Positions 15,161 to 46,705 are shown, counted from the stretch's first letter. The stretch is DNA of 64,000 nucleotides from Pseudomonadota bacterium (GCA_043814015.1 JBDRKM010000443.1:8926-72925); one strand, 5' to 3'. The notes: generated by a model from the letters alone, not told the origin. Translations and numbers: made by a program.

Positions 15161-15201
15161 GGGAGGCGGCTCCGGAGGGGGGGGCGGGGTCTATCAAGAA
15201 A

Positions 15202-15229: not shown

Positions 15230-15491
15230 CAGCAGGCAGCGCACCAGGGGCCTCGTCCGGACCGCGTGACGTTCGTCGGGCGAAGCCCGCCTCTGCGCAG
15301 GTCCGGAGGGTGTGTGGCTGACACCTGAAAGCTCCCCGCTGTTTTATGGCTCGTGGAACCGCGCCCCACGCGGCATGGGTGACCATCGCGGTCGCGGCAG
15401 GCCAGGCCTACCGGCATGGTGGGCTGGTCGCCCTTCCTTGGATAGAAGAAGTCCATCACGCTTCATGGGAAGCACTGCCTGGAGGGAACCC

Positions 15492-16106
15492 GTGCACGCC
15501 TTCTCGCCTGTTGACCGCGTCACCATCAGCGTTTGCTTCGAGCGAGGCTTCGAGTTGTTCAAGAAAAACGTGGGTCCCTTCGTGCTGTGGGGGCTGGCCC
15601 TCGCCGGCCTCAACTGGCTCATCGGCGCCATGTCGGCAGGGGTGGGCCTGGTCGTGGCCAGCCTGGTCACGTTCCCAGCCTCCCTCGGGCTGTACGCGGC
15701 CGTCTATGCCACCGCGAACGACCAGCCGGTCGACGCCGGCGTGCTCTTCTCGGGGTTCCGGCGTCCTGCGGCCTACCTCTTCGGCGTCATGTTCGTGGTG
15801 GCGCTCATCCTAGGCGCGATGCTCTTCGTTCTGCCGGCGATCTACCTGCTGTTGGCCCTGGTGTGGACCCAGTGCTACATGCAGGGGCGTGACAAGGGGG
15901 CCGTCGCCGCGTTCGTGGCCAGTATCTCGTTGTTCAATCGCAACCTGGGGTTCTGCCTGCTGCTCGCGGTGGTGTCCTACGTCCTCTACTCCGTGGGTAC
16001 CGTCACCTTCGCGTTGGCGGCCCTGACCACGCCGATGCGGGTCGTGATCGAGGTCGTCGGCTTCGAGCTGCTGCTGGCCCAGGCGAAGAACAGCAACCTC
16101 AACTGA
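15492..16106 (+). CDS. Polytopic membrane protein of unknown function
   Basis: In-frame GTG 15492 preceded by GGAGGG 5 nt upstream. Four to five hydrophobic helices. The N-terminal part of ORF 15312..16106 looks non-coding. Confidence 0.6.
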   Translation: MHAFSPVDRVTISVCFERGFELFKKNVGPFVLWGLALAGLNWLIGAMSAGVGLVVASLVTFPASLGLYAAVYATANDQPVDAGVLFSGFRRPAAYLFGVMFVVALILGAMLFVLPAIYLLLALVWTQCYMQGRDKGAVAAFVASISLFNRNLGFCLLLAVVSYVLYSVGTVTFALAALTTPMRVVIEVVGFELLLAQAKNSNLN

Positions 16107-16464
16107 TCGCGCGCTGACGTTGCGCGCCGGGCCCCCCCAGGCGAGCCGCCCGTGCCCGCGCCGACCAGTCCCCTGGGGTGACGCTCACCGCAGTCCGGTG
16201 GGCTCCTGACGGTGATCCAGGTCAGGCATCCCCCCGCGGGGTCGCCAGGAGGCCTTCTCCCGGGCTAATGGGGGGGCCACTCCGAGGAGGCTTCGGGCCC
16301 ACGCGTCGTGAGCCCTCGCGAACACCTCATGTCGCGCCCACGCACCACCGTGGATCTCGCCTCGCGCCGCAGCCCTCCCCCCCTCGGGACTGCTCACGCA
16401 CCGGTGGCGTCCGCCCCCGGCTGCTCCTCCACCCATCGCCCTCTCGCCTACCCAAGGGAATGAG

Positions 16465-18366
16465 ATGAGCCAGAATCCCCAGCAAGCCGCGCCCGTGGGC
16501 GTCACGCCCAAGGTCGTCACGCTGCGCGAACACATCGTCGAGATCGTCAGCGACTCCGGCCAGGGCGCCCAGAAGGCCGGCCAGTCCTTCAGCGCCATCA
16601 GCGCCAAGATGGGCAACGGCGTCTGGACGGTCGAGATCATCCCGGCCGAGATCAAGCCGCCCTCCCGCTCCTCGGCCGGCGCCTCGGGCATCCGCATCCG
16701 CATCGGCGATCACAACGTCACCAACATGGGCGACGAGGCCGACATGGTGGTGGCCCTGAACGAGCAGGTGCTCTACGGCCGCATCGAGCAGGGCGCCTAC
16801 CGGCGCGGCACCATCCTGCTGCTCGAGTCCAAGTGGGCGACGGATGCCAACCCCGCCATCTGCCAGGCCTACGCCGAGGCCGTCGATCGCTTCCGGGAGA
16901 TGGGGCTCGATGTCCGCGAGCTGGCCATCGAGGCCGCCTGCGTCGAGATCACCCCCACCCCCCAGCTCGGCATGAACATGTTCGTGCTGGGGATGATCTG
17001 CGAGATCTACCGGCGCGACTTCGAGATCGCGCGGGAGCAGATCCGCTTCGCCTTCCGCAAGAAGGCCACCAAGGTCGTCGAGATGAACCTGGAGCTGCTC
17101 GACGCGGGGCGCCTCTTCGCCCAGAGGGCCATCCCCGAGCGCTTCCAGATCGGGCGTTGGGACAACGACAAGCCCCTCATCGTCATGAACGGCAACGAGG
17201 CCGTGGGCCTGGGCGTGATGGCGGCCGGCATCGAGATGGTGGCCATGTACCCCATCACCCCCGCCACCTCCGCCTCCCACTACCTCGCCGAGGTCTTCCA
17301 CAAGGTGGGCGGCTGCGTCCACCAGGCGGAGGACGAGATCGCGGCCATCGGCTACGCCATCGGCGCCTCCTACGCGGGCAAGACCGCCTGCACCATCACC
17401 TCCGGCCCGGGCCTGGCCCTCAAGACCGAGTTCATCGGGCTGGCGGTCATGGCCGAGATCCCGCTGGTCATCGTGGTGGTCCAGCGCGGCGGGCCCTCCA
17501 CCGGCCTGCCCACCAAGGTGGAGCAGGGCGATCTGATGGCGGCCCTGCACGCCTCGCCGGGTGACGCCCCCAAGATCGTCATCGCCCCGGCCACCATCGA
17601 GGAATCCTGCCACTTCGTGGTCACCGCCCGCAAGCTGGCCGAGGCCTTCCGCGGCCCGGTCATGGTGCTGACGGACGCCAACCTCGCCACCGGCGTGCAG
17701 CCCTTCCCGCGGCCCAACGTCCAGGGCGAGTGGCTCTCCTCTCCCATCGATCAGTCCCCCTGGAAGGAGGGCGTGCTGCCCTACGACTGGGATCCGGACA
17801 CCGGCCTCTCTCCGCGCCCGATCCCCGGTCAAGCGGGTGGTGAGTACGTGCTCACCGGCCTGGCCCACACCAACCGCTCCTGGGTCGCCTATGATCCTGC
17901 CTCCAACCAGTACGGGGCCGAGATGCGCTCCCGCAAGCTGGCGGCGCTGCAGCGCACCCTGCGGCCGCCGAGGGTCTTCGGGGACGAGCAGGGCGAGCTG
18001 CTGATCGTCGGCTGGGGCTCCACGCTCGGCTCCATCGAGGAGGCCGTCGAGCGCGCCCGCGCCGATGGCTTCAGCGTCAGCGCCCTGCACCTGCGCTTCC
18101 TCTCGCCGCTGGAGCCCGGGCTCAAGGAGATCTTCTCGCGATTCGAGCGGGTCGTCACGGTGGAGATCAACTTCTCCGACTCCGCGACCGTGCCGCGCCC
18201 CACCGGTGAGCCGCGTCGGATGGGCCAGCTCGCCACCCTGCTGCGGACCCACACCCTGCTCGACATCGACTGCTACTCCAATGTCTACGGCCAGCCGCTC
18301 AGGCCCGGCCAGGTCTACGAAGAGATCCAGCGGCGGCTCGGCGCCGCCGGGAAGGAGGCTCGGTAA
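16465..18366 (+). CDS. korA: 2-oxoglutarate/2-oxoacid:ferredoxin oxidoreductase subunit alpha (gamma-alpha fusion)
   Basis: 633 aa. N-terminal gamma-like domain (SGQGAQKAGQ), then the alpha/pyrimidine-binding domain (MNGNEAVGLGVMAAG..YPITPAT). Confidence 0.9.
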   Translation: MSQNPQQAAPVGVTPKVVTLREHIVEIVSDSGQGAQKAGQSFSAISAKMGNGVWTVEIIPAEIKPPSRSSAGASGIRIRIGDHNVTNMGDEADMVVALNEQVLYGRIEQGAYRRGTILLLESKWATDANPAICQAYAEAVDRFREMGLDVRELAIEAACVEITPTPQLGMNMFVLGMICEIYRRDFEIAREQIRFAFRKKATKVVEMNLELLDAGRLFAQRAIPERFQIGRWDNDKPLIVMNGNEAVGLGVMAAGIEMVAMYPITPATSASHYLAEVFHKVGGCVHQAEDEIAAIGYAIGASYAGKTACTITSGPGLALKTEFIGLAVMAEIPLVIVVVQRGGPSTGLPTKVEQGDLMAALHASPGDAPKIVIAPATIEESCHFVVTARKLAEAFRGPVMVLTDANLATGVQPFPRPNVQGEWLSSPIDQSPWKEGVLPYDWDPDTGLSPRPIPGQAGGEYVLTGLAHTNRSWVAYDPASNQYGAEMRSRKLAALQRTLRPPRVFGDEQGELLIVGWGSTLGSIEEAVERARADGFSVSALHLRFLSPLEPGLKEIFSRFERVVTVEINFSDSATVPRPTGEPRRMGQLATLLRTHTLLDIDCYSNVYGQPLRPGQVYEEIQRRLGAAGKEAR

Positions 18367-18368
18367 TC

Positions 18369-19322
18369 ATGTTCGGACTCAAGACCGACTGGTCCCTGGA
18401 CGTCCCCTCCCGCTACTTCATCCTGGAGGACTACCTCGGCAACGAGGCGCGCTGGTGCCCGGGCTGCGGCGATCACGCCGTGCTCACCGCGGTGCAGCGC
18501 ATCTGCCGCGACGAGCAGCTGCCCCCCGAGCAGACGGTGGTGGTCTCCGGCATCGGCTGCTCCAGCCGCTTCCCCCACTACATGGCCACCTACGGCTTCC
18601 ACGGCCTGCACGGTCGCGCCCTGCCCGTGGCCGGCGGGGTCAAGTCGCGCCGCCCCGACCTCAAGGTCATCGTGGCCACCGGCGATGGCGACTGCTGCTC
18701 CATCGGCGCCGGCCATTGGATCCACGCCATCCGCTACAACCAGGACATGGTCGTCATGATGTTCGACAACAACATCTACGGCCTGACCAAGGCGCAGACC
18801 TCGCCCACCTCCCGTCAGGGCCAGAAGACCAACACCCACCCCCGTGGTTCCTGGTTGCCGCCCCTCAACCCCACCGCGGCCACCCTGGGCATGACGAACG
18901 TGTCCTTCATGGCTCAGACGGTGGACTGGATGCCCGGCCACCTGCACGCGGTGCTTCAGGCTGCCTACCGGCATCGGGGGCTCTCCTTCGTGCGCATCGC
19001 CCAGCGCTGCCCGCAGTACACCGGCAAGGCGTTCGAGGAGTTCGTCAACGACCCCAGCAGGATCCTCGTCCTCGAGCACGAGAAGGGCATCCCGCTGGAT
19101 CCGGACCTCCAGAAGTTCTACAAGAACCGCATGGTCCACGATCCGTCCGACATCGTGGAGGCCACGGCCATCTCGCACCGCGAGGACGTGCTCCCCATCG
19201 GCCTGTTCTTCTGGGATCCGTCCCGCCCCTGCTACGACGACTTCACCCAGCAGGGCATGGACATGTCCCCCGAGGACAAGCTGCGCGCCCTCAACGCGGA
19301 GATGGACCGCTTCGCGGTATAG
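18369..19322 (+). CDS. korB: 2-oxoglutarate/2-oxoacid:ferredoxin oxidoreductase subunit beta (TPP-binding)
   Basis: WCPGCGDH cluster motif and TPP motif GDGDCCSIGAGH...NNIYGLTKAQ. Starts 2 nt after the korA stop. Confidence 0.9.
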   Translation: MFGLKTDWSLDVPSRYFILEDYLGNEARWCPGCGDHAVLTAVQRICRDEQLPPEQTVVVSGIGCSSRFPHYMATYGFHGLHGRALPVAGGVKSRRPDLKVIVATGDGDCCSIGAGHWIHAIRYNQDMVVMMFDNNIYGLTKAQTSPTSRQGQKTNTHPRGSWLPPLNPTAATLGMTNVSFMAQTVDWMPGHLHAVLQAAYRHRGLSFVRIAQRCPQYTGKAFEEFVNDPSRILVLEHEKGIPLDPDLQKFYKNRMVHDPSDIVEATAISHREDVLPIGLFFWDPSRPCYDDFTQQGMDMSPEDKLRALNAEMDRFAV

Positions 19323-19364: not shown

Positions 19365-21953
19365 ATGAACAAGAGCCAGGACCTCCAGGTGCAGACGCCC
19401 GCGCAACCCGCGGTGGACGACCCCGAGCTGGATCAGGAGCGCGCGCTGCCGGCCGACGAAGCCGGGGCCGCCGGGACCGAGCCGGAGGCCATCCCCACGC
19501 GGCCCGACGTGGCCCTGCCGACCCTCCCCGCGCCCGGCGAGGAGCCCGCCCCCCGAGCACAGGGCGATCTCATGCGGGCGCTCAGGCGCTTCCATGTGGT
19601 CGGGGCCGAGGATGGCCTGGATCTCGCCGAGCACGATTTCCTGCCCGCCCTGATGTTCCTGTTCCGCGATCCGGGGCGGGTGCGCACCAAGTATCCGCTG
19701 TACCTGTTCCCCCCGCACAGCGCGGACCCGGGCAACCTGTTCGAGGGGCTCAAGGTCATCCTCGATCGGCTCCTCGCCGAGGTGGCCCCGGGCGCAGAGC
19801 AGGCGCGGGCCCTCAAGGACAACCTGGCGCGCCTGGAGATCGAGGTGCGCAAGGCCATGGCCGACGAGTCCCGGCCCGTGCCGGCGCGGCCCGTGTTCGA
19901 GGCGGCGGCCAGGGCGCTGTTGGCCGGGCTGCCCATGGAGAAGCCGGGCCTGGCCCAGCTCGAGGCCGAGCTTGGCGCGCTGGTGCAGGCCGTGGACCCG
20001 CAGGCCACCCTGCTCGGCCTGACCGAGGCCGCCCCGGTCTATTTGCTGCTGCAGGCGGCCCGTAGCCGCGTGCCCCGCCGCCACCGCACCTTCCGCGAGC
20101 GCATCGAGGTGTTGTGCCGCAAGCTGCAGGATCTGCTGCGGGTCGAGTACCACAAGAGCGCCGCCGCCCGCAGCGCCGAAGCCCTCGGTGGCGCCCTGGG
20201 CGGCGTGGCCGGCTCCTTCATGGACCCGAGCGTCCTGGGCAAGGTCATGGGCGCCCCGCGCGGCTCCGAAGTCATGCGTCCCCGCCGGCGCGAGCGCATC
20301 GCCGAGGTGCTGGAGGTGCTCTCCGCCTACCTCGCCGGCGATCCCATGCCGGTCCTCACCTTCACCCATCCCCCGGATCAGGATCTCTCCTGGCTGGCCG
20401 GTGCGCCGGGCGTGCGGCTCGTCCCCGCCGAGGATCCCGCCCTGGCGGCCACCGAGGCCTTCGACGAGGCCGCCGCCATGGCCCGGCTGGTCTGGGCCGC
20501 GCGGGTGGCCGAGCTCGAGGTCGAGGACGAGTACGAGCCGGTCTGCCATAGCCCCATCCTCTCCCACCTCACCTGGCAGGACTTCGGCCCCGAGGAGCTG
20601 CGCCTGCTGCCCCCCGTGGTGGCCATGGTCTCGGCCCGCACCCTGCCCGACCGCGGCATGACCTCCCTGTCGAGGCTGCTGCTCTCCGGCCGCCCGGTGC
20701 AGGTCATGGCCAACGTCCAGTCCGCCGGCACCCCCGGCGGCACCCCGGGCCGGGGCGCCTTCTCCGGCTTCCGCCTCGAGCTCGGCTACCTGGGCATCAG
20801 CCATCGCGAGGCGGTGGTGGAGCAGTCCTCCGCGGCCCGCCCCGGGCACCTGATGGAGAGCTTCCGCCGCGGGCTCGACGCCACCCGCCCCTGCCTGCAC
20901 GTCATCGCCTCGGGCCTCGCCTTCCAGGGCAAGCTGCCCCGCCTGGGCACCTGGCTGCACGGCGGCGCCGCCATCGAGAGCCGCGCGCACCCCTTCTTCC
21001 GCTACAATCCGCTCAAGGGCGAGGGCTGGGCCCGGCGCTTCAACTTCGAGGCCAACCCCCAGCCAGGTCGTGACTGGCCCGTCTACGAGCTGCCCTGTCG
21101 CGCCGCCGATGGCTCGAACGATTCCCTCACCCTGGCCTTCACCTTCGCGGACTACGCCCTGCTGGAGCCGGTCTACCACCACCACTTCCACCCCGTCCCC
21201 CAGGGTTGTCCCGAGGAGGATCTCGTGGCGGTGGACGCCTGGGTCCGGCTCAAGGGCGACGAGGTGCTGCGCAAGGTGCCTTTCGTCTGGGCGGTGGATT
21301 CGCGGCAGCGCCTGCAACGGCTGGCCATCACCCGCCGGCTGGCCCTGGCCTGCCGCGACCGCCTGAGCTTCTGGCACACGCTGCAGGAGATGGCGGGTAT
21401 CCACGACGAGTACGCGCAGCGCGCCGCCGCCGCCGCCCGGGCCACGGCCGAGGCCGAGGCCGAGGCGCGCCTGGCCGCCCGCGAGGCCGAGCTCGAGGCC
21501 GAGATCGCGCGCGTACGGGCCGAGGAGGCCGGCGAGGCCCTGAGCCGCCTGGCCGGGGCCCTGCTGAGCACCGACCTGGTGGCATCCCCGAGCAGCATCC
21601 CGGCGCGCGCCCCGCGCGCGGCCGCGCCGGCCGCCGTCGCCACCCCCGCGGCGGACACCGGCGTCTCCGCCGAGGCCGCCGCTCCCGTCGAGGAGGAGGA
21701 GTCCTTCGACGAGCCCTACATCGACACGCCGCTGTGCACCTCCTGCAACGAGTGCGTGGCCGCCAACAACCTGCTGTTCGTCTACAACGCCAACAAGCAG
21801 GCCTACATCGGCGATCCCAGGGCCGGCACCTTCGCCCAGCTGGTGGGCTCGGCCGAGAAGTGCCCCGGGCGCTGCATCCATCCCGGCAAGCCGCTCAACC
21901 CGAACGAGCCCGGCCTCCCGGATCTCATCGCCCGTGCGGCCCCGTTCAACTAG
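19365..21953 (+). CDS. Uncharacterised fusion: unknown N-domain, PFOR domain-VI-like (degenerate) region, coiled coil, C-terminal single-cluster ferredoxin
   Basis: 862 aa. The mid region (VVAMVSARTL..RPVQVMANVQ..HPFFRYNPLKGEGW..FNFEANPQP) parallels the C-terminal half of the PFOR TPP domain and the protein at 26429-27394. Ala/Glu-rich coiled coil. Tail CTSCNEC...CPGRCIHPG. Confidence 0.7.
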   Translation: MNKSQDLQVQTPAQPAVDDPELDQERALPADEAGAAGTEPEAIPTRPDVALPTLPAPGEEPAPRAQGDLMRALRRFHVVGAEDGLDLAEHDFLPALMFLFRDPGRVRTKYPLYLFPPHSADPGNLFEGLKVILDRLLAEVAPGAEQARALKDNLARLEIEVRKAMADESRPVPARPVFEAAARALLAGLPMEKPGLAQLEAELGALVQAVDPQATLLGLTEAAPVYLLLQAARSRVPRRHRTFRERIEVLCRKLQDLLRVEYHKSAAARSAEALGGALGGVAGSFMDPSVLGKVMGAPRGSEVMRPRRRERIAEVLEVLSAYLAGDPMPVLTFTHPPDQDLSWLAGAPGVRLVPAEDPALAATEAFDEAAAMARLVWAARVAELEVEDEYEPVCHSPILSHLTWQDFGPEELRLLPPVVAMVSARTLPDRGMTSLSRLLLSGRPVQVMANVQSAGTPGGTPGRGAFSGFRLELGYLGISHREAVVEQSSAARPGHLMESFRRGLDATRPCLHVIASGLAFQGKLPRLGTWLHGGAAIESRAHPFFRYNPLKGEGWARRFNFEANPQPGRDWPVYELPCRAADGSNDSLTLAFTFADYALLEPVYHHHFHPVPQGCPEEDLVAVDAWVRLKGDEVLRKVPFVWAVDSRQRLQRLAITRRLALACRDRLSFWHTLQEMAGIHDEYAQRAAAAARATAEAEAEARLAAREAELEAEIARVRAEEAGEALSRLAGALLSTDLVASPSSIPARAPRAAAPAAVATPAADTGVSAEAAAPVEEEESFDEPYIDTPLCTSCNECVAANNLLFVYNANKQAYIGDPRAGTFAQLVGSAEKCPGRCIHPGKPLNPNEPGLPDLIARAAPFN

Positions 21954-21971: not shown

Positions 21972-22833
21972 ATGCTGACCCTGCTCACGGCGGCGGCGAT
22001 CATGGCCGGGCTCGGGCTGGCCCTGGCCACCGTGCTGGCCGTGGCCTACCGCTTCCTGCGGGTCCCCGAGGATCCGCGGGTCGAGCAGGTGGAGGGCATG
22101 CTGCCGGGTTCCAACTGCGGCGCCTGCGGCCAGCCCGGCTGTCACGCCTTCGCCGAGGCCGTGGTCAGCGGTCGCGTGGCCCCTTCGGGCTGCTCCGTGT
22201 CCAGCGCCCAGGGCGTGGCCGCCATCGCCGAGTACCTGGGGGTCGATGCTGGCGCCCGAGTCCAGCGCGTGGCCCGGCTGCACTGCGCCGGGGGCGCGGC
22301 CCACGCCGGTCCGGTGGCCACCTACCAGGGCCAGTCCTCCTGCCAGGCCGCGTCCCTCGTAGGCGGGGGGGGCAAGGCCTGCGCATGGGGCTGCCTGAGC
22401 CTGGGCGACTGCGCCCGCGCCTGCACCTTCGACGCGATCCAGATGGGGCCCGACGCCCTGCCCGTGGTGGACCCGGAGCGCTGCACCGCCTGTGGCGCCT
22501 GCGTCGATGCATGCCCGCGGGGCCTGTTCGAGATCATGCCGCTGGATCAGCCCCTCGTGGTCCAGTGCTCCATCCCGCTCTCGGGCGATGCCGCGCGCGC
22601 CCTGTGCCGTGTGGCCTGCGACGCCTGCGGTCGCTGCGCCGCCGACGCCCTGCCCGGGGTCATCACCATGAAGAACAACCTCCCCGTGGTCGCCGCGGAC
22701 AGCGCCGCCGCCGCCACGCTGGAGGCCACGCTCCGTTGCCCCCACCGGCGCCATCCGGTGGGTCGAAGGGGCCCAGTTCGCCCTGGAGGAACCCGGGGCC
22801 GTCTCACGGAGGCCGCATGCCAGGACTGGTTGA
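21972..22833 (+). CDS. rnfB: Rnf electron-transport complex subunit B, interrupted by a +1 frameshift in a C5 run (22739-22743)
   Basis: N-terminal TM helix, CGACGQPGC FeS domain and several CxxCxxCxxxCP motifs. After RC the frame breaks; deleting one C restores CPTGAIRWVEG... ending at TGA 22831-22833. Confidence 0.85.
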
Positions 22834-25800
22834 AACCGGGCTGCGCCTGCTGCGCTCGCTCGTGGGGGATGCCGTCGGCACCCCCGCTCCGCTCCCCGGG
22901 CTCCCGACCGCGCTGCGCGGTTCGGCGGCCGTGGCCATCACCGAGGCCTGCGTGGCCGAAGCCGCCGGCCTGGGCGGGGGCGCACCCGCAGACCTGCTCG
23001 CCAACGCCTGGGAGGCCGAGCGCCGCCGGGAGGGCGTGAACCTCTTCGGGGGTGCGCTCACCGACGTGGTCGCCCCCACCTCGCGGGGCACCCTGGCCAG
23101 CGCCGTGGGCATGGCCCTGGCCGGCTCTCGGGCCACAGCCTTCCTCTCGGGGCCCAACCTGGCCGGCCAGCTCGATCTGCTGGCCGCCGCGGCCGGGCGG
23201 CACCAGCCGCTGGTGATCCACGGCGTGGCCCGCGCGCTCAACGGGCATGCCGGGGCGCGCGGCAGCGGGCACGAGGCCTGGCACGCCATCTCGGACGCGG
23301 GGCTGATCCAGCTGTTCGCGCGCAACGTGCAGGAGGCGGTGGACTTCGCCCTCGTCGGGAGACGTGTCGCCGAGACTTTCCTCCGGCCCGTGCTGGTCTA
23401 CATGGACGACGAGCGCACCGCCGCGGTCACCCAGGACGTCCTCCTCCCGGGGGCCGAGCTGGTGCGGCGCTACCTCGGCGCCCCTGGTGATCGCATCGAC
23501 TGCCCCACCCCGGCTCAGCGCATGCTCTTCGGTGAGCAGCGCCGCCGGGTGCCCCGCTGGCACGATCTGGAGCGCCCCGTGCTGCACGGCGCCATCCAGG
23601 GCCGCGGGGTCTGGAGCCTGGGCGCGGCCGGCTCGCGCCCCTTCACGTCCCAGGCGCGCCTGCCTGTGATCGAGGCCGCCTTCGCCGATTTCGCCGAGCT
23701 GACCGGGCGCCGCTACGGCCTGCTGCGCACCCACCGGGTGGAGGACGCCGAGGTGGTGCTGGTCTGCCAGGGCTCCAGCGGCGAGGCCGCCGAGTGCGTG
23801 GTGGACCACCTGCGCACCCAGAACAAGCAGAAGGTCGGCTGCATCTCTCTGCTCGGGCTGCGCCCCTTCCCCGGTGCGGCCCTGGTGAGCGCCCTGCAGG
23901 GCCGGCCCAGGGTGGCCGTGCTGGAGCGCGCCGACACCCTGCTGGCCGAGGATCCGCCCCTGCTGCGCGAGCTGCGCGCGGCCTTCGCCCGCGCCGTGGA
24001 GAACCACGGCGGCGCGGTGCACGCGGGCTACCCGGCGCTGGCCGCCGAGCGCGTGCCGCGGCTCCACGCCGCGATCTACGGCCTGGGTGGCTTCCCGCTC
24101 AGGGCCGGCGACCTGGTGGCCCTGGTGGAAGAGGTGCGCCGCGGGGGCCGGTCGTTGGTCTACCTCGGCATCGACTTTCACCGCAAGGACACCCGCTACC
24201 CCAAGCGCAAGGTGCTGCTGGACGCCCTCGCCCGCGAGTGGCCGGCGGAGCTGGCCCCCGGCCTCACCGGGTACCGCGCCCAGGACGTGCGCCCCGCGGG
24301 CGCCGTCACCCTGACCGTGCACCGCGTCGGTGGGGTCCCCGGCGGGGCCCTGGCGGCCGACATGGGCCGCATGCTGCACGTGGCCCTGGGCGGCTTCGTG
24401 CGCGGCCGGGCCGGCGAGAACTGGGAGCGCTGGCAGGCGCCCTGCATCGATCGGGTGGTCCACGCCCCCGTCCCGGTGGATCCTGGCGCGTCGGGTCCCG
24501 TGGACGTGGCGCTGGTCCTGGCGCTGTCCCCCCGTTCGGCGCGGGATCCCCTGGCGGAGCTGCGCAGCGGCGGCATCGCGCTGGTGGCCGACGCAGGCAA
24601 GGAGGGAGTGCCCCTGCTGCCCCAGGACACCTGGCTGCAGCTCGAGGCCCGCCATGTCCGCGTGCTGCCCGTCCCCTGCCCGGAGGGGGCCAACCACCCC
24701 GACTTCCGCGAGCGCGTGCTGGGCCTGGTCCTGCGCGCGCTGGGTGAGCTGGGGCGGAAGCTGCCCAGCCCCAAGAAGCTGGTGGCGGCTCGCGGCGCCC
24801 TGCTGGACGGCCTCGACCCACAGGAGATCACCCGGCGCCTGGCCATCTTCTCCGCCGCGTTGGAGCAGGGGGGCGCGCCGCGATCGGCACCAGATGCCCT
24901 GCCCATCCCCGCCATGCCGCCCAGCGTGCCCATGGCGGTGCGCCACTTCCACCGCGCCGACGGTACCTACGACAGCCTGCCGCGTTTCTGGGACCAGGTG
25001 GGCATCCTGTTCCGGGACGGCCACGTGGAGGAGCTCGTCCCCGATCCCTACCTCGCCACCAGCGTGGTCCCGCCGCTCACCGCCACCTTCAACGATTTTA
25101 CGCCGCTTCGGCGCTTCTTTCCCGCCTGGGAGCCCGCCCTCTGTACGGGCTGCGGCCGCTGCTGGACCGGCTGCCCGGACTCCGCCATCGGGCCCCTGGC
25201 CCTGCCCATCCCCACCCTGGTGGAGGGCGCCATGGCCCAGGCCGCCGCGCGGGGTGGCGCCATGGATCCGCTGCGCCCGCTGCTGTCCAAGGTCACCCAC
25301 CGCCTCGGCAAGCTGCTGCGCGAGAGCAAGGAGCAGCCCGCGGCCTTCGGGATCGTGCTGCGGGAGGCCGGTGCCCGCGTGCTGGAGAAGGCGAGCTTGC
25401 CAGCCGATCGCGCTCAGCCCGTCGCGGCCGCCCTGGAGGCCGCCGCCGCCGTGGTGGACGACCTCCCCATCGCCGGCACCCTGCCGTTCTTCGTCGACCC
25501 GGAGCAGCGCCAGGCCGGCACCGGCGAGATCCTGAGCCTCTCCGTGAACCCGGACGCCTGCAAGGGCTGCGGCATCTGCGCGCTCGCCTGTCCCGAGGGC
25601 GCCATGGGGATGGAGCCCCAGAGTACCGAGCGCGTGGCCTGGGCGCGCCGCGACTGGCAGCGCTGGGAGCAGCTCCCCGACAGCCCCGGCGAGACCATCG
25701 CCCGGGTGAGTGCGCACCCTGGGGTCGGCCCACTGGCGGCCATGCTCTTGTCTCGCACCTGTCTGCTGGGCCTCTCGGGCGGGGACTCCGCCGAGGCTGG

Positions 25801-26419
25801 CTCCGGCGAGAAGGTGGCAGTACGCCTGCTGCTGGCCGCCGCCGAGTGCCAGCTCCAGCCCGAGCTGCAGCGCCACATCGATCAGGTGGAGGGCTTGAGG
25901 ATCCGGCTGACGGAAGCCATCGGCGAGCGCCTGGCCAAGGCCCTGCCCACCGGCGATCCCGCGGGCATCGCGCTGGGGCTCAAGGGGCTGCGCCAGCCCG
26001 AGATCGACCTCTCCGCCCTGCTGGCCCGGGTCGAGGGCCAGGGCGAGCACGGGCGGGTCGATGTCGCCCAGCTCCGGCGCCTGTCGGACCTCGCCGGGCG
26101 CCTGCAGGAGCTGCGTTGGCGCCTGGCCGAGGGTCCCGACGGCCTGGGCCGGGCCCGCTTCTCCGTGACCATCGAGCCCGGGCACATCGCGTCCTGGGCC
26201 GGGGCCTTCCCCGACAACCCCTTCCACGTCCCCGTGGTCGTGGCCAGCGCCGGCGAGGGTCTGCACCTGGGCCGCGGCCTGCTGGAGGGCCAGCTCCGCG
26301 CCGTGCTGGAGGATCTACGCCTGGTGCGCGAGGCGCGCGTCGCCCTGGAGCACCCCGGCGAGTACGCCCGCGAGCTGCAGTCCCTGGCCCGCCTGGGGTG
26401 GCACGGCCTGACCCGCTAG
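22817..26419 (+). CDS. Pyruvate:ferredoxin oxidoreductase (PFOR/NifJ) homologue, domains I-V plus start of VI, catalytic motifs apparently lost
   Basis: In-frame ATG 22817 (MPGLVETG) inside the long ORF 21206..26419. Domain I/II/III-like blocks. Intact ferredoxin motifs CTGCGRCWTGCP and CKGCGICALACP (~25140-25600). Ends at TAG 26417-26419. Confidence 0.8.
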   Translation: MPGLVETGLRLLRSLVGDAVGTPAPLPGLPTALRGSAAVAITEACVAEAAGLGGGAPADLLANAWEAERRREGVNLFGGALTDVVAPTSRGTLASAVGMALAGSRATAFLSGPNLAGQLDLLAAAAGRHQPLVIHGVARALNGHAGARGSGHEAWHAISDAGLIQLFARNVQEAVDFALVGRRVAETFLRPVLVYMDDERTAAVTQDVLLPGAELVRRYLGAPGDRIDCPTPAQRMLFGEQRRRVPRWHDLERPVLHGAIQGRGVWSLGAAGSRPFTSQARLPVIEAAFADFAELTGRRYGLLRTHRVEDAEVVLVCQGSSGEAAECVVDHLRTQNKQKVGCISLLGLRPFPGAALVSALQGRPRVAVLERADTLLAEDPPLLRELRAAFARAVENHGGAVHAGYPALAAERVPRLHAAIYGLGGFPLRAGDLVALVEEVRRGGRSLVYLGIDFHRKDTRYPKRKVLLDALAREWPAELAPGLTGYRAQDVRPAGAVTLTVHRVGGVPGGALAADMGRMLHVALGGFVRGRAGENWERWQAPCIDRVVHAPVPVDPGASGPVDVALVLALSPRSARDPLAELRSGGIALVADAGKEGVPLLPQDTWLQLEARHVRVLPVPCPEGANHPDFRERVLGLVLRALGELGRKLPSPKKLVAARGALLDGLDPQEITRRLAIFSAALEQGGAPRSAPDALPIPAMPPSVPMAVRHFHRADGTYDSLPRFWDQVGILFRDGHVEELVPDPYLATSVVPPLTATFNDFTPLRRFFPAWEPALCTGCGRCWTGCPDSAIGPLALPIPTLVEGAMAQAAARGGAMDPLRPLLSKVTHRLGKLLRESKEQPAAFGIVLREAGARVLEKASLPADRAQPVAAALEAAAAVVDDLPIAGTLPFFVDPEQRQAGTGEILSLSVNPDACKGCGICALACPEGAMGMEPQSTERVAWARRDWQRWEQLPDSPGETIARVSAHPGVGPLAAMLLSRTCLLGLSGGDSAEAGSGEKVAVRLLLAAAECQLQPELQRHIDQVEGLRIRLTEAIGERLAKALPTGDPAGIALGLKGLRQPEIDLSALLARVEGQGEHGRVDVAQLRRLSDLAGRLQELRWRLAEGPDGLGRARFSVTIEPGHIASWAGAFPDNPFHVPVVVASAGEGLHLGRGLLEGQLRAVLEDLRLVREARVALEHPGEYARELQSLARLGWHGLTR

Positions 26420-26428
26420 GAGCAGCGC

Positions 26429-27394
26429 GTGGTGCCGCCGGTCCTCGTCCTGGGGAACGAGGCGGCCCTCACCGGCCGCAACCTCTCCACGCTGGCCACC
26501 GTGCTCGACCTCGACATGCCCGTGAAGATCGTGGTCCTGGCGGACTGCGACCTCGGGCTGACCGCCGGGAGCGGCCCGGCCGAGCCCGACGAGCTGGGCA
26601 GCGGCTGGACCGGCAGCCTGGGCGAGGTAGGCCTCTTGGCCCTGGGTCAGCGCCGCGCCTACGTCACCCAGTGCTCCCTCTCCGAGCCCGCCCAGCTCTT
26701 CCAGGGGCTCACCGAGGCCTTCGCCCACCCGGGTCCGGCCCTGATCCGCGTCCACGCGCCCAGCCCGAGCCGCCACGGCTTCCCGGTGCGTGAGGGCCTG
26801 GAGCAGACCCGGCGGGCCGTCCTGTCGCGCACCTTCCCCCTGTTCCGCTACGACCCCACCCGCGAGGGCATCTTCGGCGCCTGCCTCTTCCTCGACGGCA
26901 ACCCCGAGCCCACGGGCGACTGGGCGCGCGACGCCGAGGGCGTGGTGCGCACCGCGGGCGACTGGGCCGCCACCGAAGGCCGCTTCGCCTCCGAGCTGAG
27001 CCCCGTGGGTCCTGGCACCCCCGAGCCCACCCCGCTGCCCGAGTGGATCGCGCTGCCCCTGCACACCCGCCACGGGCGCACGCCCTTCGTCCCGGATCCG
27101 GTGGTGGTGGGGCGGCGGTTGGCCGTCTCCCCGCGCCTGGCCGCGGTGGCCGAGGAGCGCCTGCGCACCTGGCGCACCCTGCAGGAGCTGGCCGGCGTGG
27201 TCACCCCCTTCACCGCCCGGGTGAAGGAACTGGCAGAGCGCGAGCTGGCCGGTCGGCATGCCGCCGAGCTGGCCGCCCTGGAGGCGCGTCACGCCGCGGC
27301 GCTGGCCGCGCTGCGCGGCGAGGTCGAGCAGGACATGGCCCAGCGCGTGCGGGAGAACCTCCTCGAGCTGGCCGGGTACGGGCGGGGGGAGTAG
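26429..27394 (+). CDS. PFOR domain-VI (TPP-binding) C-terminal homologue with degenerate GDG motif and coiled-coil tail
   Basis: Same frame as the preceding gene, 9 nt after its TAG. AGGAG lies 6 nt before GTG 26429. VLVLGNEAAL..VKIVVLADCD takes the place of GGDGWAYDIG..VLVLDTE. FPLFRYDPTREG block. Confidence 0.7.
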   Translation: MVPPVLVLGNEAALTGRNLSTLATVLDLDMPVKIVVLADCDLGLTAGSGPAEPDELGSGWTGSLGEVGLLALGQRRAYVTQCSLSEPAQLFQGLTEAFAHPGPALIRVHAPSPSRHGFPVREGLEQTRRAVLSRTFPLFRYDPTREGIFGACLFLDGNPEPTGDWARDAEGVVRTAGDWAATEGRFASELSPVGPGTPEPTPLPEWIALPLHTRHGRTPFVPDPVVVGRRLAVSPRLAAVAEERLRTWRTLQELAGVVTPFTARVKELAERELAGRHAAELAALEARHAAALAALRGEVEQDMAQRVRENLLELAGYGRGE

Positions 27395-27400: not shown

Positions 27401-28756
27401 ATGGCTACTTCCCTGGCCAGCTTCCGGCACGGGGTGCACCCCACGGAGCACAAGGAGCCCACCTCGGGGCTCCCGATCCAGCGCCTGGGTTTCGTGGAGC
27501 GCTACCTGCTGCCCCTGTCGCAGCACCTGGGCGCCCCGAGCAAGCCCATCGTGGTGGTCGGCCAGGAGGTGGCCCGCGGCCAGCGCATCGCCGAGCCCGG
27601 CGGGTTCGTCTCCACCAGCCTGCACAGCCCGGTCAGGGGGCGCGTGGTGGCCATCGAGCCACGCCGCCTGCCCACCGGCGCCATCGGCCCCGCTATCGAG
27701 ATCGCCGCCGACAGCTTCGACCCCCAGCAGCCCCCGCCGCCGCCGCCGGGTCCTTTCGAGGAGCCCGACGTCGATGAGCTCGTGGCCGGGGTGCGCGACG
27801 CCGGCATCGTCGGCCTGGGTGGCGCGGCCTTCCCCACCCACGTCAAGTACAAGCTCCCGGACGGCCGGCGGGCCCACACCCTGGTGATCAACGGCGCCGA
27901 GTGCGAGCCCTGGCTCACCTGCGACCACCGCCTCATGCTGGAGCGCAGCCGCGCCGTGGCCGAGGGCATCAAGCTGGTGGCCGCGGCGCTGGAGGTCGGC
28001 CAGGCCCTGGTGGGGATCGAAGCCAACAAGCTGGACGCGGTGCGCGCCCTGCAGGCCGCGCTGCGCGCCATGCCCGGCGGTCCCCCGGTACAGGTGCGCC
28101 CTGTGAGGGTCAAGTACCCCCAGGGCGGCGAGAAGATGCTCATCGAGGCCCTGACTGGCGCCCAGGTGCCCGGCGGCAAGCTGCCGCTGCACATCGGCGT
28201 GGTGGTCAACAACGTGGGCACCATGGCGGCCTTGGCCGACTGGTTCCTGCGCGGCCAGCCCCTGATCGAGCGGGTGGTCACGGTCTCGGGGCCGGGGATC
28301 GCGCGGCCGGCCAACCTGCTGGTGCCCCTGGGTACCCCGGTGCGGGCTGTCCTGGAGGCCTGCGGCGGCCTGCCGGAGGATGCGCGCATGGTGATCATGG
28401 GCGGCCCCATGATGGGCCAGCCCCTGGCCAGCGTGGATGTGCCTGTGGTCAAGGGCACTTCGGGCCTGCTGGTGTTTCGCGAGGGCGATCTGTCCAGCCC
28501 CGAGGAGCTGGCCTGCATCCGCTGCGGCCGCTGCCTGGAGGCCTGCGCCTGCTTCCTCAACCCCTCCACGCTGGGGCGCCTGGCCCGCAAGGAGCGCTGG
28601 GAGGACATGCGCGCCCTGAACCTCCTGGACTGCATGGAGTGCGGCGCCTGCTCCTGGGCCTGCCCCTCCCGCATCCCCCTGGTGCAGCAGTTCCGGGTGG
28701 CCAAAGCCCAGCTCCGGCGCATCGACGCCCTGAAGAAGCAGCGAGGTGGGGCATGA
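27401..28756 (+). CDS. rnfC: Rnf complex subunit C (NADH-binding, FMN, 2x[4Fe-4S])
   Basis: GGAAFPTHVKY, INGAECEPWLTCD, and two CxxCxxCxxxCP motifs (CIRCGRCLEACA, CMECGACSWACP). Confidence 0.95.
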   Translation: MATSLASFRHGVHPTEHKEPTSGLPIQRLGFVERYLLPLSQHLGAPSKPIVVVGQEVARGQRIAEPGGFVSTSLHSPVRGRVVAIEPRRLPTGAIGPAIEIAADSFDPQQPPPPPPGPFEEPDVDELVAGVRDAGIVGLGGAAFPTHVKYKLPDGRRAHTLVINGAECEPWLTCDHRLMLERSRAVAEGIKLVAAALEVGQALVGIEANKLDAVRALQAALRAMPGGPPVQVRPVRVKYPQGGEKMLIEALTGAQVPGGKLPLHIGVVVNNVGTMAALADWFLRGQPLIERVVTVSGPGIARPANLLVPLGTPVRAVLEACGGLPEDARMVIMGGPMMGQPLASVDVPVVKGTSGLLVFREGDLSSPEELACIRCGRCLEACACFLNPSTLGRLARKERWEDMRALNLLDCMECGACSWACPSRIPLVQQFRVAKAQLRRIDALKKQRGGA

Positions 28757-29778
28757 ACCGCCACGACCAGGGGCTGTGGCTGCGCACCTCACCCCATGAT
28801 CGCGCCGCCACGGACACCCCGCGCATCATGCGCGATGTGCTGTTGGCGCTGACGCCCGTTTCCCTCGCCGCGCTGCTGTACTTCGGCGTCGCCGCCGTGT
28901 TGGTGGTGGGCGGCGCGGTGGCGGGCTGCGTGGCCACCGAGGCGGCCTTCGCCCCCCGCGGGCGGCGCACCGCCTCCCTGCGAGATGGCTCCGCCCTGCT
29001 CACCGGCTTGTTGCTGGGCCTCACCCTGCCCCCGAGCTTCCCTGTCTGGATGGCGTTTCTGGGAGGGGTGGTCGCCATCGGCCTGGGCAAGGTGGTCTGG
29101 GGTGGGCTGGGCCACAACCTCTTCAACCCGGCCCTCGTGGGGCGCGCCTTCCTGCAGGCCGCCTTCCCCACCGCCATCACCACCTGGTCGCCCCAGCGCG
29201 CGCAGGATCTGGCCGTCTACGCCAGCAACCTGGCCATGCCCTTCATGAAGGCTCCGGTCGATGCGATCAGCACCGCCACCCCGCTGGGCCTGATGAAGTT
29301 CCAGGGCCAGGGCACCGACCTCTGGAGCCTGCTGGTGGGCGACTGTCCGGGCTCTCTCGGGGAGACCAGCGCCGTGCTGCTGCTCGTCGGTGGGGTCTAC
29401 CTCTGGCGCCGACGCGCCCTCGACTGGCGCATCCCGGCCGCCATCCTGGGCACGGTCTTCGTCTTCTCCGGCCTCGTCTGGCTGGTGGCGGCCAAAGCTC
29501 CGCCCCCCTGGTTCATGCTGGGCTCCGGCGGCCTGATGCTCGGCGCCCTCTTCATGGCCACGGATCCGGTCACCTCGCCCATGGCGCCGCTGGGCGCCTG
29601 GATCTACGGCGCGGGCATCGGCGTGCTGGTGGTGCTCATCCGCCTGTGGGGCGGGCTGCCCGAGGGCGTCATGTACGCCATCCTGCTGATGAACGCGGTC
29701 ACCCCGCTCATCAACCGCGGGATTCAGCCCACCCCCTTCGGCCGGGGTCGCAAGGCCCCGCGGGAGGAGAGCCCATGA
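28753..29778 (+). CDS. rnfD: Rnf complex subunit D (NqrB-like membrane subunit)
   Basis: ATGA overlap with rnfC. Polytopic. DAISTATPLG flavinylation-type motif. Confidence 0.9.
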   Translation: MNRHDQGLWLRTSPHDRAATDTPRIMRDVLLALTPVSLAALLYFGVAAVLVVGGAVAGCVATEAAFAPRGRRTASLRDGSALLTGLLLGLTLPPSFPVWMAFLGGVVAIGLGKVVWGGLGHNLFNPALVGRAFLQAAFPTAITTWSPQRAQDLAVYASNLAMPFMKAPVDAISTATPLGLMKFQGQGTDLWSLLVGDCPGSLGETSAVLLLVGGVYLWRRRALDWRIPAAILGTVFVFSGLVWLVAAKAPPPWFMLGSGGLMLGALFMATDPVTSPMAPLGAWIYGAGIGVLVVLIRLWGGLPEGVMYAILLMNAVTPLINRGIQPTPFGRGRKAPREESP

Positions 29779-30449
29779 GCGCCGCCCCCGAAGCCGAGCC
29801 CTCCTCCTTCCGGCTGGTGGCCACCCTCACCATCGCCGGCCTGGTCTCGGGCCTGCTGCTGGTCGGGGCCTACCAGATCACCAAGCCCATCATCGAGCGC
29901 AATGAGGCCGAGGCCCTGCAGGCTGCCGTGTTCCAGGTGCTGCCCGGCACCGAGGAGCTGCAGCCCCTGGTCCTGCGCGAGGGCCACCTGGATCCGGCCA
30001 CCCCGGCCGACAAGGACGCCCCCACCATCTACGCGGGCCGTCGTCGCGGGGGCGCGCTCGTGGGCTACGCCATCCCAGCCCAGGGCCCCGGCTTCCAGGA
30101 CACCATCAAGCTGATCTTCGGCTACGACCCGGCCCGGGCCGTCATCGTGGGCATGAAGGTGCTGGACTCCCGCGAGACCCCGGGGCTGGGCGACAAGATC
30201 AAGAAGGACAAGGCCTTCCTGGACAACTTCACCGCCCTGGCGGTGGATCCGGAGATCGTGCCCGTGGGAACGGGCAAGAAGGCCGCGCCCAACGAGCTGG
30301 ACTGCATCACCGGCGCCACCATCTCCTCCAAGGCCATCGCGAAGATCGTCAACGGCGGCATGGAGACGTGGCGCCCGGTGCTCGTGCCCGAGGGCCTTGG
30401 GGCGACCGAGCCCGAGCCACCGCCCGTGCCCCAGGAGGCCACGCCATGA
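29775..30449 (+). CDS. rnfG: Rnf complex subunit G (NqrC-like, FMN-binding)
   Basis: ATGA overlap with rnfD. Single N-terminal TM helix. ETPGLGDK and ITGATISS motifs. Confidence 0.9.
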   Translation: MSAAPEAEPSSFRLVATLTIAGLVSGLLLVGAYQITKPIIERNEAEALQAAVFQVLPGTEELQPLVLREGHLDPATPADKDAPTIYAGRRRGGALVGYAIPAQGPGFQDTIKLIFGYDPARAVIVGMKVLDSRETPGLGDKIKKDKAFLDNFTALAVDPEIVPVGTGKKAAPNELDCITGATISSKAIAKIVNGGMETWRPVLVPEGLGATEPEPPPVPQEATP

Positions 30450-31099
30450 GCGCCCTGGCTCCCGAAGCTCCGCGCACCGCGTCCCAGGCCTACGCAGAGT
30501 TCGTCAAGGGGATCTGGAAGGAGAACCCGGTCTTCGTGCAGGTGCTGGGCATGTGCCCCGTCCTCGCCGTCACCAACTCCGCCATCAACGCCCTGGCCAT
30601 GGGCGCCGCCACCCTGGTGGTGCTGGTGGGCTCCTCCTTCTTCGTCTCCCTCTTGCGGCACCACATCCCCAAGCAGGTGCGCATCTCCACCTACATCATC
30701 ATCATCGCCACCTTCGTCACGGTCACGGACTACGCCCTGAAAGCCATCTCCCCCGCGGTCCACGCCGAGCTGGGCGCCTTCATCGCGTTGATCGTGGTCA
30801 ACTGCATCATCCTCGGGCGCCAGGAGGCCTTCGCCGCCAAGAACACCGTCAAGCTGGCGGTGATGGACGCGCTGGGCATGTCGGCGGGCTTCACCATCGC
30901 GCTCCTGGCGCTGGGCGCTGTGCGCGAGATCCTCGGCAGCGGCTCGCTCTTCGGCGTCTCGCTGTTCGGCCCCCACTACGAGCCCTGGGTCATCATGATC
31001 CTGCCGCCCGGCGGCTTCATCATGCTGGGGCTGATCCTGCTGTTCTTCGCCTGGCTCAAGCAGCGCCGCCAGCGCGCCACGCATGGGGAGGCGGCCTGA
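30446..31099 (+). CDS. rnfE: Rnf complex subunit E (NqrD-like)
   Basis: ATGA overlap with rnfG. NPVFVQVLGMCP signature. Confidence 0.9.
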   Translation: MSALAPEAPRTASQAYAEFVKGIWKENPVFVQVLGMCPVLAVTNSAINALAMGAATLVVLVGSSFFVSLLRHHIPKQVRISTYIIIIATFVTVTDYALKAISPAVHAELGAFIALIVVNCIILGRQEAFAAKNTVKLAVMDALGMSAGFTIALLALGAVREILGSGSLFGVSLFGPHYEPWVIMILPPGGFIMLGLILLFFAWLKQRRQRATHGEAA

Positions 31100-31677
31100 T
31101 GGGTGCGTTCATCGGCATCTTCATGGGCTCGCTGGTGATCAACAACTTCACCCTGAGCTACTTCCTCGGCATCTGCCCCTTCCTGGGGGTCTCGGGCCGC
31201 GTGGTCACCGCCTTCCGCCTGGGGCTGGCCAACATCTTCGTGATGCTCATCACGGCGTTCTGCACCTGGGGCCTGAACACCTTCATCCTGCCGCACGCCC
31301 CCTACCTGCAGATCATCAGCTACATCCTCGTCATCGCCTCCACCGTGCAGTTCGTGGAGATGGTCATCAAGAAGCTCTCCCCGGAGCTGTTCCGGGCGCT
31401 GGGCATCTTCCTGCCCCTCATCACCACCAACTGCGCCATCCTGGGCCTGGCCCTCTTCATGACCAACAAGGGCTTCGGCCTGGCCGAGGGCATGGTCTAC
31501 GCGCTCGGCGCGGGCGGCGGCGTCACCCTGGCCCTGGTGCTGATGGCCGGTCTTCGGGAGGAGGCCGAGCTGTCGGACATCCCCGCGCTCATGCGCGGCA
31601 CCGCCATGAGCCTCATCATCGCCGGCCTGCTGTCGCTGGCCTTCATGGGCTTCGCGGGCCTGTTCGCGGCGGGCTGA
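31099..31677 (+). CDS. rnfA: Rnf complex subunit A (NqrE-like)
   Basis: 1-nt TGATG overlap with rnfE. NNFTLSYFLGICPFLGVS and ITTNCAILG signatures. Confidence 0.9.
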   Translation: MGAFIGIFMGSLVINNFTLSYFLGICPFLGVSGRVVTAFRLGLANIFVMLITAFCTWGLNTFILPHAPYLQIISYILVIASTVQFVEMVIKKLSPELFRALGIFLPLITTNCAILGLALFMTNKGFGLAEGMVYALGAGGGVTLALVLMAGLREEAELSDIPALMRGTAMSLIIAGLLSLAFMGFAGLFAAG

Positions 31678-46690: not shown

Positions 46691-46705
46691 GGATCGCGGC
46701 CCCCG

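Follow-up and report, generated by a model that had tools for sequence, protein, structure and literature searches.

A pyruvate:ferredoxin oxidoreductase homologue that has lost its catalytic motifs is conserved between rnfB and rnfC

The gene considered here lies between rnfB and rnfC in a 64,000-nucleotide stretch of DNA (the window; ~72% G+C) from a Pseudomonadota bacterium (GCA_043814015.1, JBDRKM010000443.1:8926-72925). It encodes PFL (PFOR-like protein), a homologue of pyruvate:ferredoxin oxidoreductase (PFOR) that keeps the fold and the ferredoxin motifs of that enzyme; the motifs for thiamine pyrophosphate (TPP) and for the proximal iron–sulfur (Fe-S) cluster are lost, in the window copy and across its family. 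The reading favoured here, with moderate confidence, makes PFL a pseudoenzyme that has no catalytic role and serves as a scaffold or Fe-S conduit between a 2-oxoacid:ferredoxin oxidoreductase (OFOR) acting on 2-oxoglutarate and RnfB with the Rnf complex. The gene and its relevant segments are located in the window as follows.

22817-27394, plus strand: PFL, 1525 codons
23072-23104, plus strand: APTSRGTLASA in place of QSEAGAAGA, TPP-activating Glu lost (by alignment)
25142-25177, plus strand: ferredoxin motif 1, CTGCGRCWTGCP, residues 776-787
25559-25594, plus strand: ferredoxin motif 2, CKGCGICALACP, residues 915-926
25775-25810, plus strand: SGGDSAEAGSGE loop where PFOR has the CxxCGE ligands of its proximal cluster (by alignment); family consensus GGDGAEAGSGEK
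26171-26224, plus strand: IEPGHIASWAGAFPDNPF, aligned to ATGCSSIYGGNLPSTPY, third cluster ligand replaced (by alignment)
26417-26419, plus strand: in-frame TAG, codon 1201; GAG in other assemblies
26450-26470, plus strand: LGNEAAL in place of the GGDGW TPP/Mg motif (by alignment)
26537-26560, plus strand: LADCDLGL in place of LDTxxYSNTGGQ (by alignment)
26753-26782, plus strand: HAPSPSRHGF in place of AYSPCxEHGY, fourth cluster ligand replaced (by alignment)
26849-27391, plus strand: family-specific C-terminal extension of ~180 aa with an invariant WRTLQELAGxVTPFT and a terminal long helix, common to X862 (the protein described below)

Homology to PFOR is evident from domains, profiles and fold. 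Pfam detects POR_N, PFOR_II and Fer4 (4Fe-4S) before the TAG and a sub-threshold TPP_enzyme_C after it; Pfam POR (PF01558) has no match in PFL. A single-sequence phmmer search of the PDB returns PFOR structures (6cin/1b0p, E ~1e-25), and a profile built from 30 PFL sequences reaches 6CIN at E=9e-65, aligned in domains I/II, III, V and VI. The AlphaFold2 (AF2) model covers residues 1-1200, with a predicted local distance difference test score (pLDDT) of 76 and a predicted template modelling score (pTM) of 0.70; its top Foldseek matches are PFORs (E=6.5e-37), and its alpha-like part matches OFOR alpha subunits at template modelling (TM) scores of 0.82-0.84. Pfam, the 6CIN profile alignment and Foldseek thus agree on the domain order I-II-III-(IV)-V-VI that an earlier note on this DNA had recognised, the match in domain III being weak (E=6e-6).

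PFL shares with the homodimeric PFORs (Desulfocurvibacter africanus 1B0P/7PLM, Moorella thermoacetica 6CIN, Escherichia coli YdbK) the superfamily, the fold, the order of domains I, II, III, V and VI and two CxxCxxCxxxCP motifs in domain V, with an identity to PFOR of only ~15-18%. Unlike them, it is devoid of the activating Glu, of GDG...N and of all four proximal-cluster Cys. It also carries two PFL-specific helical inserts, one of ~80 residues in the ferredoxin domain between the two motifs and one of ~100 residues after the former CxxC loop, as well as the ~180-residue C-terminal extension.

Motifs were scored with E. coli YdbK as the canonical reference, aligned with 71 PFL members (the window sequence and 70 full-length open reading frames (ORFs) from GTDB loci); D. 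africanus (Da) numbering is used for PFOR. E64, the TPP-activating Glu, corresponds to S89 in the window and to Pro (45), Ala (19), Ser (3) or Gly (3) in the family, never to Glu or Asp. T31 corresponds to A56 in the window and is mostly Phe in the family. LGNEAAL aligns with IGGDGWA, so that the TPP/Mg motif reads G-N-E-A in the window and G-[NSDG]-[D40/S12/E11]-x in the family. The LDTxxYSNTGGQ segment has become LA[DE]LDxGL in the family with no conserved Asn (N996 is degenerate), with the reservation that the HMMER and MAFFT registers differ by one residue downstream of the GDG position.

The proximal cluster has fared no better. SGGDSAEAGSGE aligns with SGACSGCGE: C812 is replaced by E993, which is Glu in 71/71, and C815 by S996, Ser in 69/71. 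The third ligand, C840, corresponds to H1123 and is variable in the family, and the fourth, C1071, to S1316, which is Ser in 70/71. The AF2 pLDDT falls below 50 at residues 988-994. The same methods recover these motifs in YdbK and in the KorA and KorB proteins encoded upstream of PFL, which serves as an internal control for the alignment register. The earlier note had proposed that the segment with the activating Glu reads APTSRGTLASA, that GDG...N reads LGNEAAL...LADCD and that the CxGCGE ligands are replaced; the alignment bears out all three losses, across the family, and adds those of the third and fourth cluster ligands.

Judged from this alignment, the loss of the TPP motifs and of the proximal cluster characterises the whole PFL family and extends well beyond the window copy, and there is a strong case that PFL is TPP-less. 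With the proximal cluster gone, electrons have also lost the one known route out of the TPP site.

These losses bear directly on how the gene has been named. RefSeq calls PFL a '4Fe-4S binding protein' and JGI a 'pyruvate-ferredoxin/flavodoxin oxidoreductase'; the gene that stands between rnfB and rnfC in the symbiont of Solemya velum was recorded as PFOR, and pyruvate was inferred from that assignment to be an electron donor to Rnf (Dmytrenko et al., PMC4287430). That PFL is a genuine PFOR feeding electrons from pyruvate to Rnf is consistent with these names and with the PFOR domain order and fold. The proximal-cluster ligands, the activating Glu and GDG...N are, however, absent in 71/71 members, while the same alignments recover them in YdbK and KorAB, and the NCBIfam PFOR equivalog TIGR02176 (EC 1.2.7.1) scores PFL at 89.9 bits, below its cut-off of 911.35. 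The alignment contradicts this reading, which is very improbable.

The integrity of the gene needs separate attention. Translation of the window shows that codon 1201 is TAG, which the earlier note had overlooked in reporting 22817-27394 as a full-length homologue; its identification of a PFOR homologue starting at 22817 holds. The public gene call on the window contig (product P0001, 1117 aa) starts late, at 23066, and ends at the TAG. Position 26417 is G, giving GAG (Glu), in the contigs of 3/3 public metagenome runs from biofilm and aquifer samples, one of which (run X1) is otherwise 99+% identical to the window. PFL is moreover one uninterrupted ORF in 79 of 80 related loci. Because GAG stands in three independent assemblies and the ORF is single in 79/80 relatives, the TAG is probably a mistake of assembly, or else a rare variant, and the PFL gene is intact in the population. 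Residue 1201 is itself variable across the family, with an invariant Glu two positions further on. Read-through as selenocysteine or pyrrolysine was considered and set aside, given a TAG codon, a position without conservation in the family and the GAG of the other assemblies. The sole locus of the 80 with PFL halves in different frames is L057 (at ~13615-13620), through a frameshift or a sequencing error in a metagenome-assembled genome (MAG).

Two further positions deviate in the same contig. Compared with runs X2 and X3, whose contigs lack it, the window has an extra C in the C-run at 22735-22739. This base, at 22739, puts the 3' end of rnfB out of frame, giving an ORF that runs to 23039 (355 aa) with a nonsense tail and a 220-nt overlap with PFL; without it, RnfB has 286 aa, ends ...RCPTGAIRWVEG..., stops at 22833 and carries a normal CPTGAI cluster motif, and the overlap nearly vanishes. 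At 23658 the window has G (Arg281 of PFL), where runs X1, X2 and X3 have T (Leu), the family consensus. Together, 22739, 23658 and 26417 suggest scattered errors in the deposited contig. The true start of PFL is ATG 22817, because the N-terminus (MPGLVETGLRLLRSLVG) fits the family consensus MPxF..LRLxRRLxG and GGAGG is found 5 nt upstream of the ATG. It was preferred to the start at 23066 given by the gene caller, since the first 83 residues fit the family consensus and the overlap with rnfB is only apparent.

Taken at face value, the TAG at 26417-26419 would make PFL a decaying pseudogene in the window genome, a reading that deserves very little credence. The GAG in three independent assemblies stands against it, as do the in-frame, conserved sequence after the TAG and the other likely errors in the same contig (the extra C at 22739 and the G at 23658). 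Against sister-strain contigs of ~98% identity, 33 of the 46 listed differences are synonymous and 13 non-synonymous, and most of the 12 amino-acid changes are conservative; across phyla, PFL ORFs are intact at 32-68% identity. These mostly synonymous differences and intact ORFs contradict the pseudogene reading and rule out a decaying relic; PFL is under purifying selection. Public RNA-seq runs were also searched for the window locus, and no run contains it. PFL thus has the properties of a pseudoenzyme: stripped of its catalytic residues, it still has the fold and an intact ORF and remains under purifying selection.

Several features have been kept or are specific to the family. Both CxxCxxCxxxCP motifs of domain V, with all eight Cys, are present in the window, as the earlier note had reported, and in 66 of the 71 members. 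The GGDGAEAGSGEK loop at the former cluster site is strongly conserved. Residues 705-765 (window 24929-25111) are among the most conserved segments of the family, yet their AF2 pLDDT is below 50; their consensus is ...YDSLPRFWDQVGVLYR...PDPYLATG..PPLSSTFRD..., with a homologous stretch in X862 residues 84-115, and this may be a partner-binding segment. For the C-terminal extension, phmmer against 1.84 billion representatives gives 639 matches at E<=1e-3. The best 150 of these 639 are essentially all C-termini of PFLs of ~1400-1600 aa or fragments of such proteins, and among these best 150 the extension was not found as a portable docking domain on other proteins. At least 275 clusters at 50% identity carry it at E<=1e-10.

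PFL is not the only dead paralogue in this region. X862 is encoded upstream of rnfB.

19365-21953, plus strand: X862, 862 aa, dead PFOR paralogue with a C-terminal single-cluster ferredoxin domain

Pfam and NCBIfam scans find no family for X862, and its identity comes from BLASTP and hhalign against PFL and from a fold search. By BLASTP, X862 411-686 matches the part of PFL after the TAG (E=3e-22); by hhalign, X862 84-731 matches PFL 763-1529 (probability 100, E=4e-55); and the top Foldseek matches of the AF2 model (pLDDT 83.3) are M. thermoacetica PFOR and OFOR beta subunits. X862 has no GDG motif. C791, C794, C797 and C833 are invariant and lie in the C-terminal ferredoxin domain, which is PF13370 (Fer4_13) in homologues; source annotations name X862-type proteins 'ferredoxin'. 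In some lineages the homologues reach ~1,300 aa, and the long ones (P0167-P0169) still match PFOR_II. Since these carry PFOR domain II, sequence comparison suggests that X862 is a truncated duplicate of PFL, its N-terminus having been lost after duplication. At L082 8771-12721, from a Myxococcota MAG that likewise carries the ten-gene cluster, a 1,316-aa protein (P0171) occupies the position of X862.

The catalytic partner is likely to be found upstream of X862, and the rnf genes flank PFL on both sides. The remaining genes of the cluster are these.

16465-18366, plus strand: korA, OFOR alpha subunit (KorA-like, gamma+alpha fusion), catalytic motifs intact; Pfam POR, POR_N, PFOR_II
18369-19322, plus strand: korB, OFOR beta subunit (KorB-like); Pfam TPP_enzyme_C, E=1.6e-26
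21972-22833, plus strand: rnfB (corrected; to 23039 as given); Pfam FeS and Fer4, NCBIfam RnfB models
27401-28756, plus strand: rnfC; TIGR01945 519.8 bits, Pfam RnfC_N, Complex1_51K
28783-29778, plus strand: rnfD (start approximate); Pfam NQR2_RnfD_RnfE, E=7.5e-107
29850-30449, plus strand: rnfG (start approximate); Pfam FMN_bind
30368-31099, plus strand: rnfE; Pfam Rnf-Nqr, E=3.3e-64
31102-31677, plus strand: rnfA (start approximate); 68-91% identity to the last rnf-cluster gene in related loci

KorA scores 507.6 bits with NCBIfam TIGR03710, above the cut-off of 482.75, and in alignment with YdbK still has the Thr of ITPA and the TPP-activating Glu (E291). KorB has all TPP and [4Fe-4S] motifs (WCPGCGDH, GIGCSS, TGDGD, DNN, RCPQY), and its best PDB matches are 5b48_B (E=1.9e-49) and 6n2n_B. 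By its motifs, KorAB is a catalytically intact two-subunit OFOR without a built-in ferredoxin domain, like the (alpha-beta)2 enzymes of Sulfolobus tokodaii (StOFOR, 5B46/5B48) and Magnetococcus marinus (a 2-oxoglutarate:ferredoxin oxidoreductase (OGOR), 6N2N). Two-subunit OFORs contain the proximal cluster only and need an outside Fe-S partner, and the characterised ones use small soluble ferredoxins. Among the ten genes annotated in the cluster no free-standing ferredoxin gene is present. Unlike the StOFOR and 6N2N systems, the candidate partners here are dead paralogues of 860-1,530 residues encoded between korB and rnfC.

The rnf genes of the window are those of a canonical Rnf complex (RnfABCDGE, in which the polyferredoxin subunit RnfB is the one that faces ferredoxin), with PFL encoded among them. 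PFL is unlike every known Rnf subunit: it is not homologous to RnfA, B, C, D, E or G and shows generic Fer4 similarity to RnfB only (TIGR01944 23 bits, cut-off 68.7). To our knowledge, no solved or purified Rnf complex contains a PFL-like protein.

This arrangement is conserved. A GTDB scan with PFL gave the 80 loci, in which linkage was counted only where there was enough flank and the rnfB adjacency count was corrected by hand for overlapping matches. In most of the loci, as in the window, PFL is flanked by rnfB and rnfC: rnfB is directly upstream in ~66/71 and rnfC directly downstream in 52/67, with sucCD in between in 3 more. Upstream korA-korB-X862 is found in 51/59 and a complete rnfCDGEA downstream in 45/53. 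The earlier note had placed PFL in an rnf operon and pointed to its linkage to rnf as a test; these counts uphold the linkage, and the context proves wider, with korAB and X862 included. The ten-gene cluster korA-korB-X862-rnfB-PFL-rnfCDGEA is kept in Gammaproteobacteria, among whose carriers are many sulfur-oxidising lineages and symbionts, and in Phycisphaerales, Myxococcota and Eisenbacteria. The 80 loci include Chromatiales, Sedimenticolaceae, Thiohalomonadaceae, Woeseiaceae and Thiotrichaceae (relatives of Beggiatoa, Thiomargarita and Thioploca), symbionts of tubeworms, lucinid clams and nematodes, Thiorhodococcus mannitoliphagus DSM 18266, and Phycisphaerales, Planctomycetales, Myxococcales and Eisenbacteria. 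The closest relatives of the window locus (L002, L003 and L021; PFL 66-67% identity) are labelled 'uncultured Enterobacterales bacterium', a label that looks unreliable; nor do other window genes (an FHA-sigma54 activator and proteins with LRV and HEAT repeats) point to that order.

Succinyl-CoA synthetase genes recur at the same place. sucCD directly follows PFL in seven loci (L012, L016, L075, L018, L020, L022 and L066); in L016 Pfam places it between PFL and rnfC (14714-17185), and a gap of the same size, ~2.6 kb, is present there in L012 and L075. In tubeworm symbionts the order is FAD-binding protein, NuoF-like protein, korA, korB, X862, rnfB, PFL, sucC, sucD; rnfCDGEA is not adjacent, and rnfB nevertheless stays beside PFL. 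In one of these symbionts, L020, the flanking stretches are 1-2205 (FAD_binding_2 and NuoF-like, upstream) and 14687-16859 (sucCD). The recurrent linkage to sucCD suggests that KorAB acts on 2-oxoglutarate/succinyl-CoA and is a 2-oxoglutarate OFOR. Because PFL sits in korAB-X862-rnfB-PFL-rnfCDGEA, its likely partner is this OFOR as well as Rnf.

The mechanism proposed for the scaffold follows from this arrangement. PFL and X862, perhaps paired through their shared C-terminal extension, would form a non-catalytic scaffold that docks KorAB onto RnfB. In most lineages their ferredoxin-type clusters would form a fixed electron wire that links the KorB cluster with RnfB, and interconversion of 2-oxoglutarate and succinyl-CoA would be coupled to NAD(H) and an ion gradient without free ferredoxin. 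PFL and X862 are proposed as the Fe-S partners because a two-subunit OFOR needs an outside partner and the cluster encodes no small ferredoxin. The earlier note had suggested exaptation as an electron-transfer or docking subunit; a selected, rnf-linked and probably TPP-less PFOR scaffold stands, exaptation itself is inferred, and docking is the favoured form.

Several observations weigh against this account, and two of the alternatives draw on them. One set concerns the former active site. Glyoxylate carboligase is a TPP enzyme that works without the activating Glu, so loss of this residue alone is no proof of inactivity. Near the former Mg site acidic residues persist (D/E1215 in 51/71, D/E1243 in 59/71, D1245 in 64/71), and the former cluster site has its invariant Glu; PFL could on that account still bind a metal or a small ligand. 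PFL might then be neofunctionalised, its remodelled site binding a metal or small ligand in a new enzyme or in a metabolite sensor or regulator of the OFOR/Rnf module. This is unlikely, though it has the conservation of the site in its favour: E993, D990, S996 and S1316 are invariant or nearly so, with Glu in place of Cys in the conserved loop, the equivalent of the 2-oxoacid-binding Arg R114 (R139 in the window) is Arg in 56/71, and domain I has the highest mean column conservation (0.66). The loop, however, fits no known cofactor motif and has low AF2 confidence, domain III, which binds CoA in PFOR, is the least conserved (0.40), and Pfam, NCBIfam and PDB searches gave no related family with such an activity.

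A second set concerns electron transfer and partners. Five PFL members (L009, L024, L069, L072 and L031; three from Phycisphaerales, one from Planctomycetales and one from a Myxococcales MAG) lack 4-5 of the 8 Cys in the ferredoxin motifs, and all five remain in a full korAB-X862-rnfB-PFL-rnfCDGEA cluster. The losses align to window residues 779, 782, 918, 921 and 925, leaving the pattern C-D-L-C ... C-x-x-C/G. Because these members keep the cluster without the ferredoxin Cys, the electron-wire role cannot be universal, which favours a structural (docking or scaffold) function over electron transfer as the universally conserved role. In several Thiotrichaceae loci (Beggiatoa/Thiomargarita relatives), moreover, rnfB-PFL or PFL alone occurs with korAB-X862 not nearby, and the association of PFL with KorAB, X862 and RnfB is putative.

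These loci lend something to the notion that PFL is an electron module on the Rnf side, a giant ferredoxin on RnfB independent of the OFOR, with the OFOR linkage reflecting co-regulation only. rnfB-PFL is the most conserved adjacency, and all eight Cys are present in the great majority of members. Yet korAB-X862 lies upstream across phyla, the tubeworm symbionts keep rnfB-PFL with korAB and sucCD and not with rnfCDGEA, and members without ferredoxin Cys exist; the notion is improbable, and slightly more so than a neofunctionalised site.

The last point against the scaffold reading concerns the direction of the OFOR reaction, which may run either way. The tubeworm symbiont Endoriftia has a 'PFOR-like' gene, probably PFL, that was listed among PFOR isoforms and is co-regulated with a dimeric korAB, which speaks for the scaffold reading; under sulfide limitation korAB(3) and 'PFOR-like' fall with nitrogen-assimilation genes, while reductive tricarboxylic acid (rTCA) cycle genes rise (Mitchell et al. 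2024, PMC11636981).

The scaffold reading can be carried further, though only tentatively. The products of korAB-X862-rnfB-PFL-(sucCD)-rnfCDGEA may form a membrane-bound supercomplex in which the dead paralogues tether the 2-oxoglutarate oxidoreductase to Rnf with no soluble ferredoxin. In such a complex, succinyl-CoA would be reductively carboxylated at the expense of NADH and the ion gradient or, with the reaction running backwards, energy would be conserved. The nearest published parallel is the Hdr-Flx/KorABCD cluster of tubeworm symbionts, in which an OGOR is likewise clustered with an electron-delivering complex for direct channelling, itself proposed by genomic and transcriptomic inference; it differs in its four-subunit OGOR, in having Hdr-Flx as the partner and in having no dead PFOR paralogues (Rubin-Blum et al. 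2019, PMC6315080). The same study mentions a dimeric korAB near genes of the tricarboxylic acid (TCA) cycle (Rubin-Blum et al. 2019, PMC6315080).

A full-text literature search of partial coverage found no analysis of the lost PFL cofactor sites, of X862 or of the ten-gene cluster, nor did the literature searched yield a previous account of any pseudoenzyme among the OFORs and their superfamily. The suggestion that this protein had not been described needs amending to that extent: the gene had already been noted as PFOR or 'PFOR-like', and what is missing from the literature found is an account of the lost catalytic residues.

Two further window genes outside the cluster may be recorded. An 815-codon ORF at 31889-34333 (minus strand) is convergent with the end of the rnf operon; its G+C content at third codon positions (GC3 0.88) is coding-like, and it has no Pfam match. 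At 44876-46705 (minus strand) an N-terminal ODP domain (di-iron, beta-lactamase fold) is fused to a GGDEF diguanylate cyclase, possibly a gas- or redox-sensing synthase of cyclic di-GMP (c-di-GMP), judging by its domains.

The PFL sequence is incompatible with PFOR, and metabolic reconstructions that rely on the PFOR label need correcting. The PFL family is large and includes a paralogous pair of pseudoenzymes, PFL and X862. For the delivery of very low-potential electrons to oxygen-sensitive 2-oxoacid synthases in microaerobic autotrophs, the operon offers a testable case of direct channelling. If the supercomplex exists, sulfur-oxidising bacteria and chemosynthetic symbionts would widely share a bioenergetic module that had gone unrecognised.

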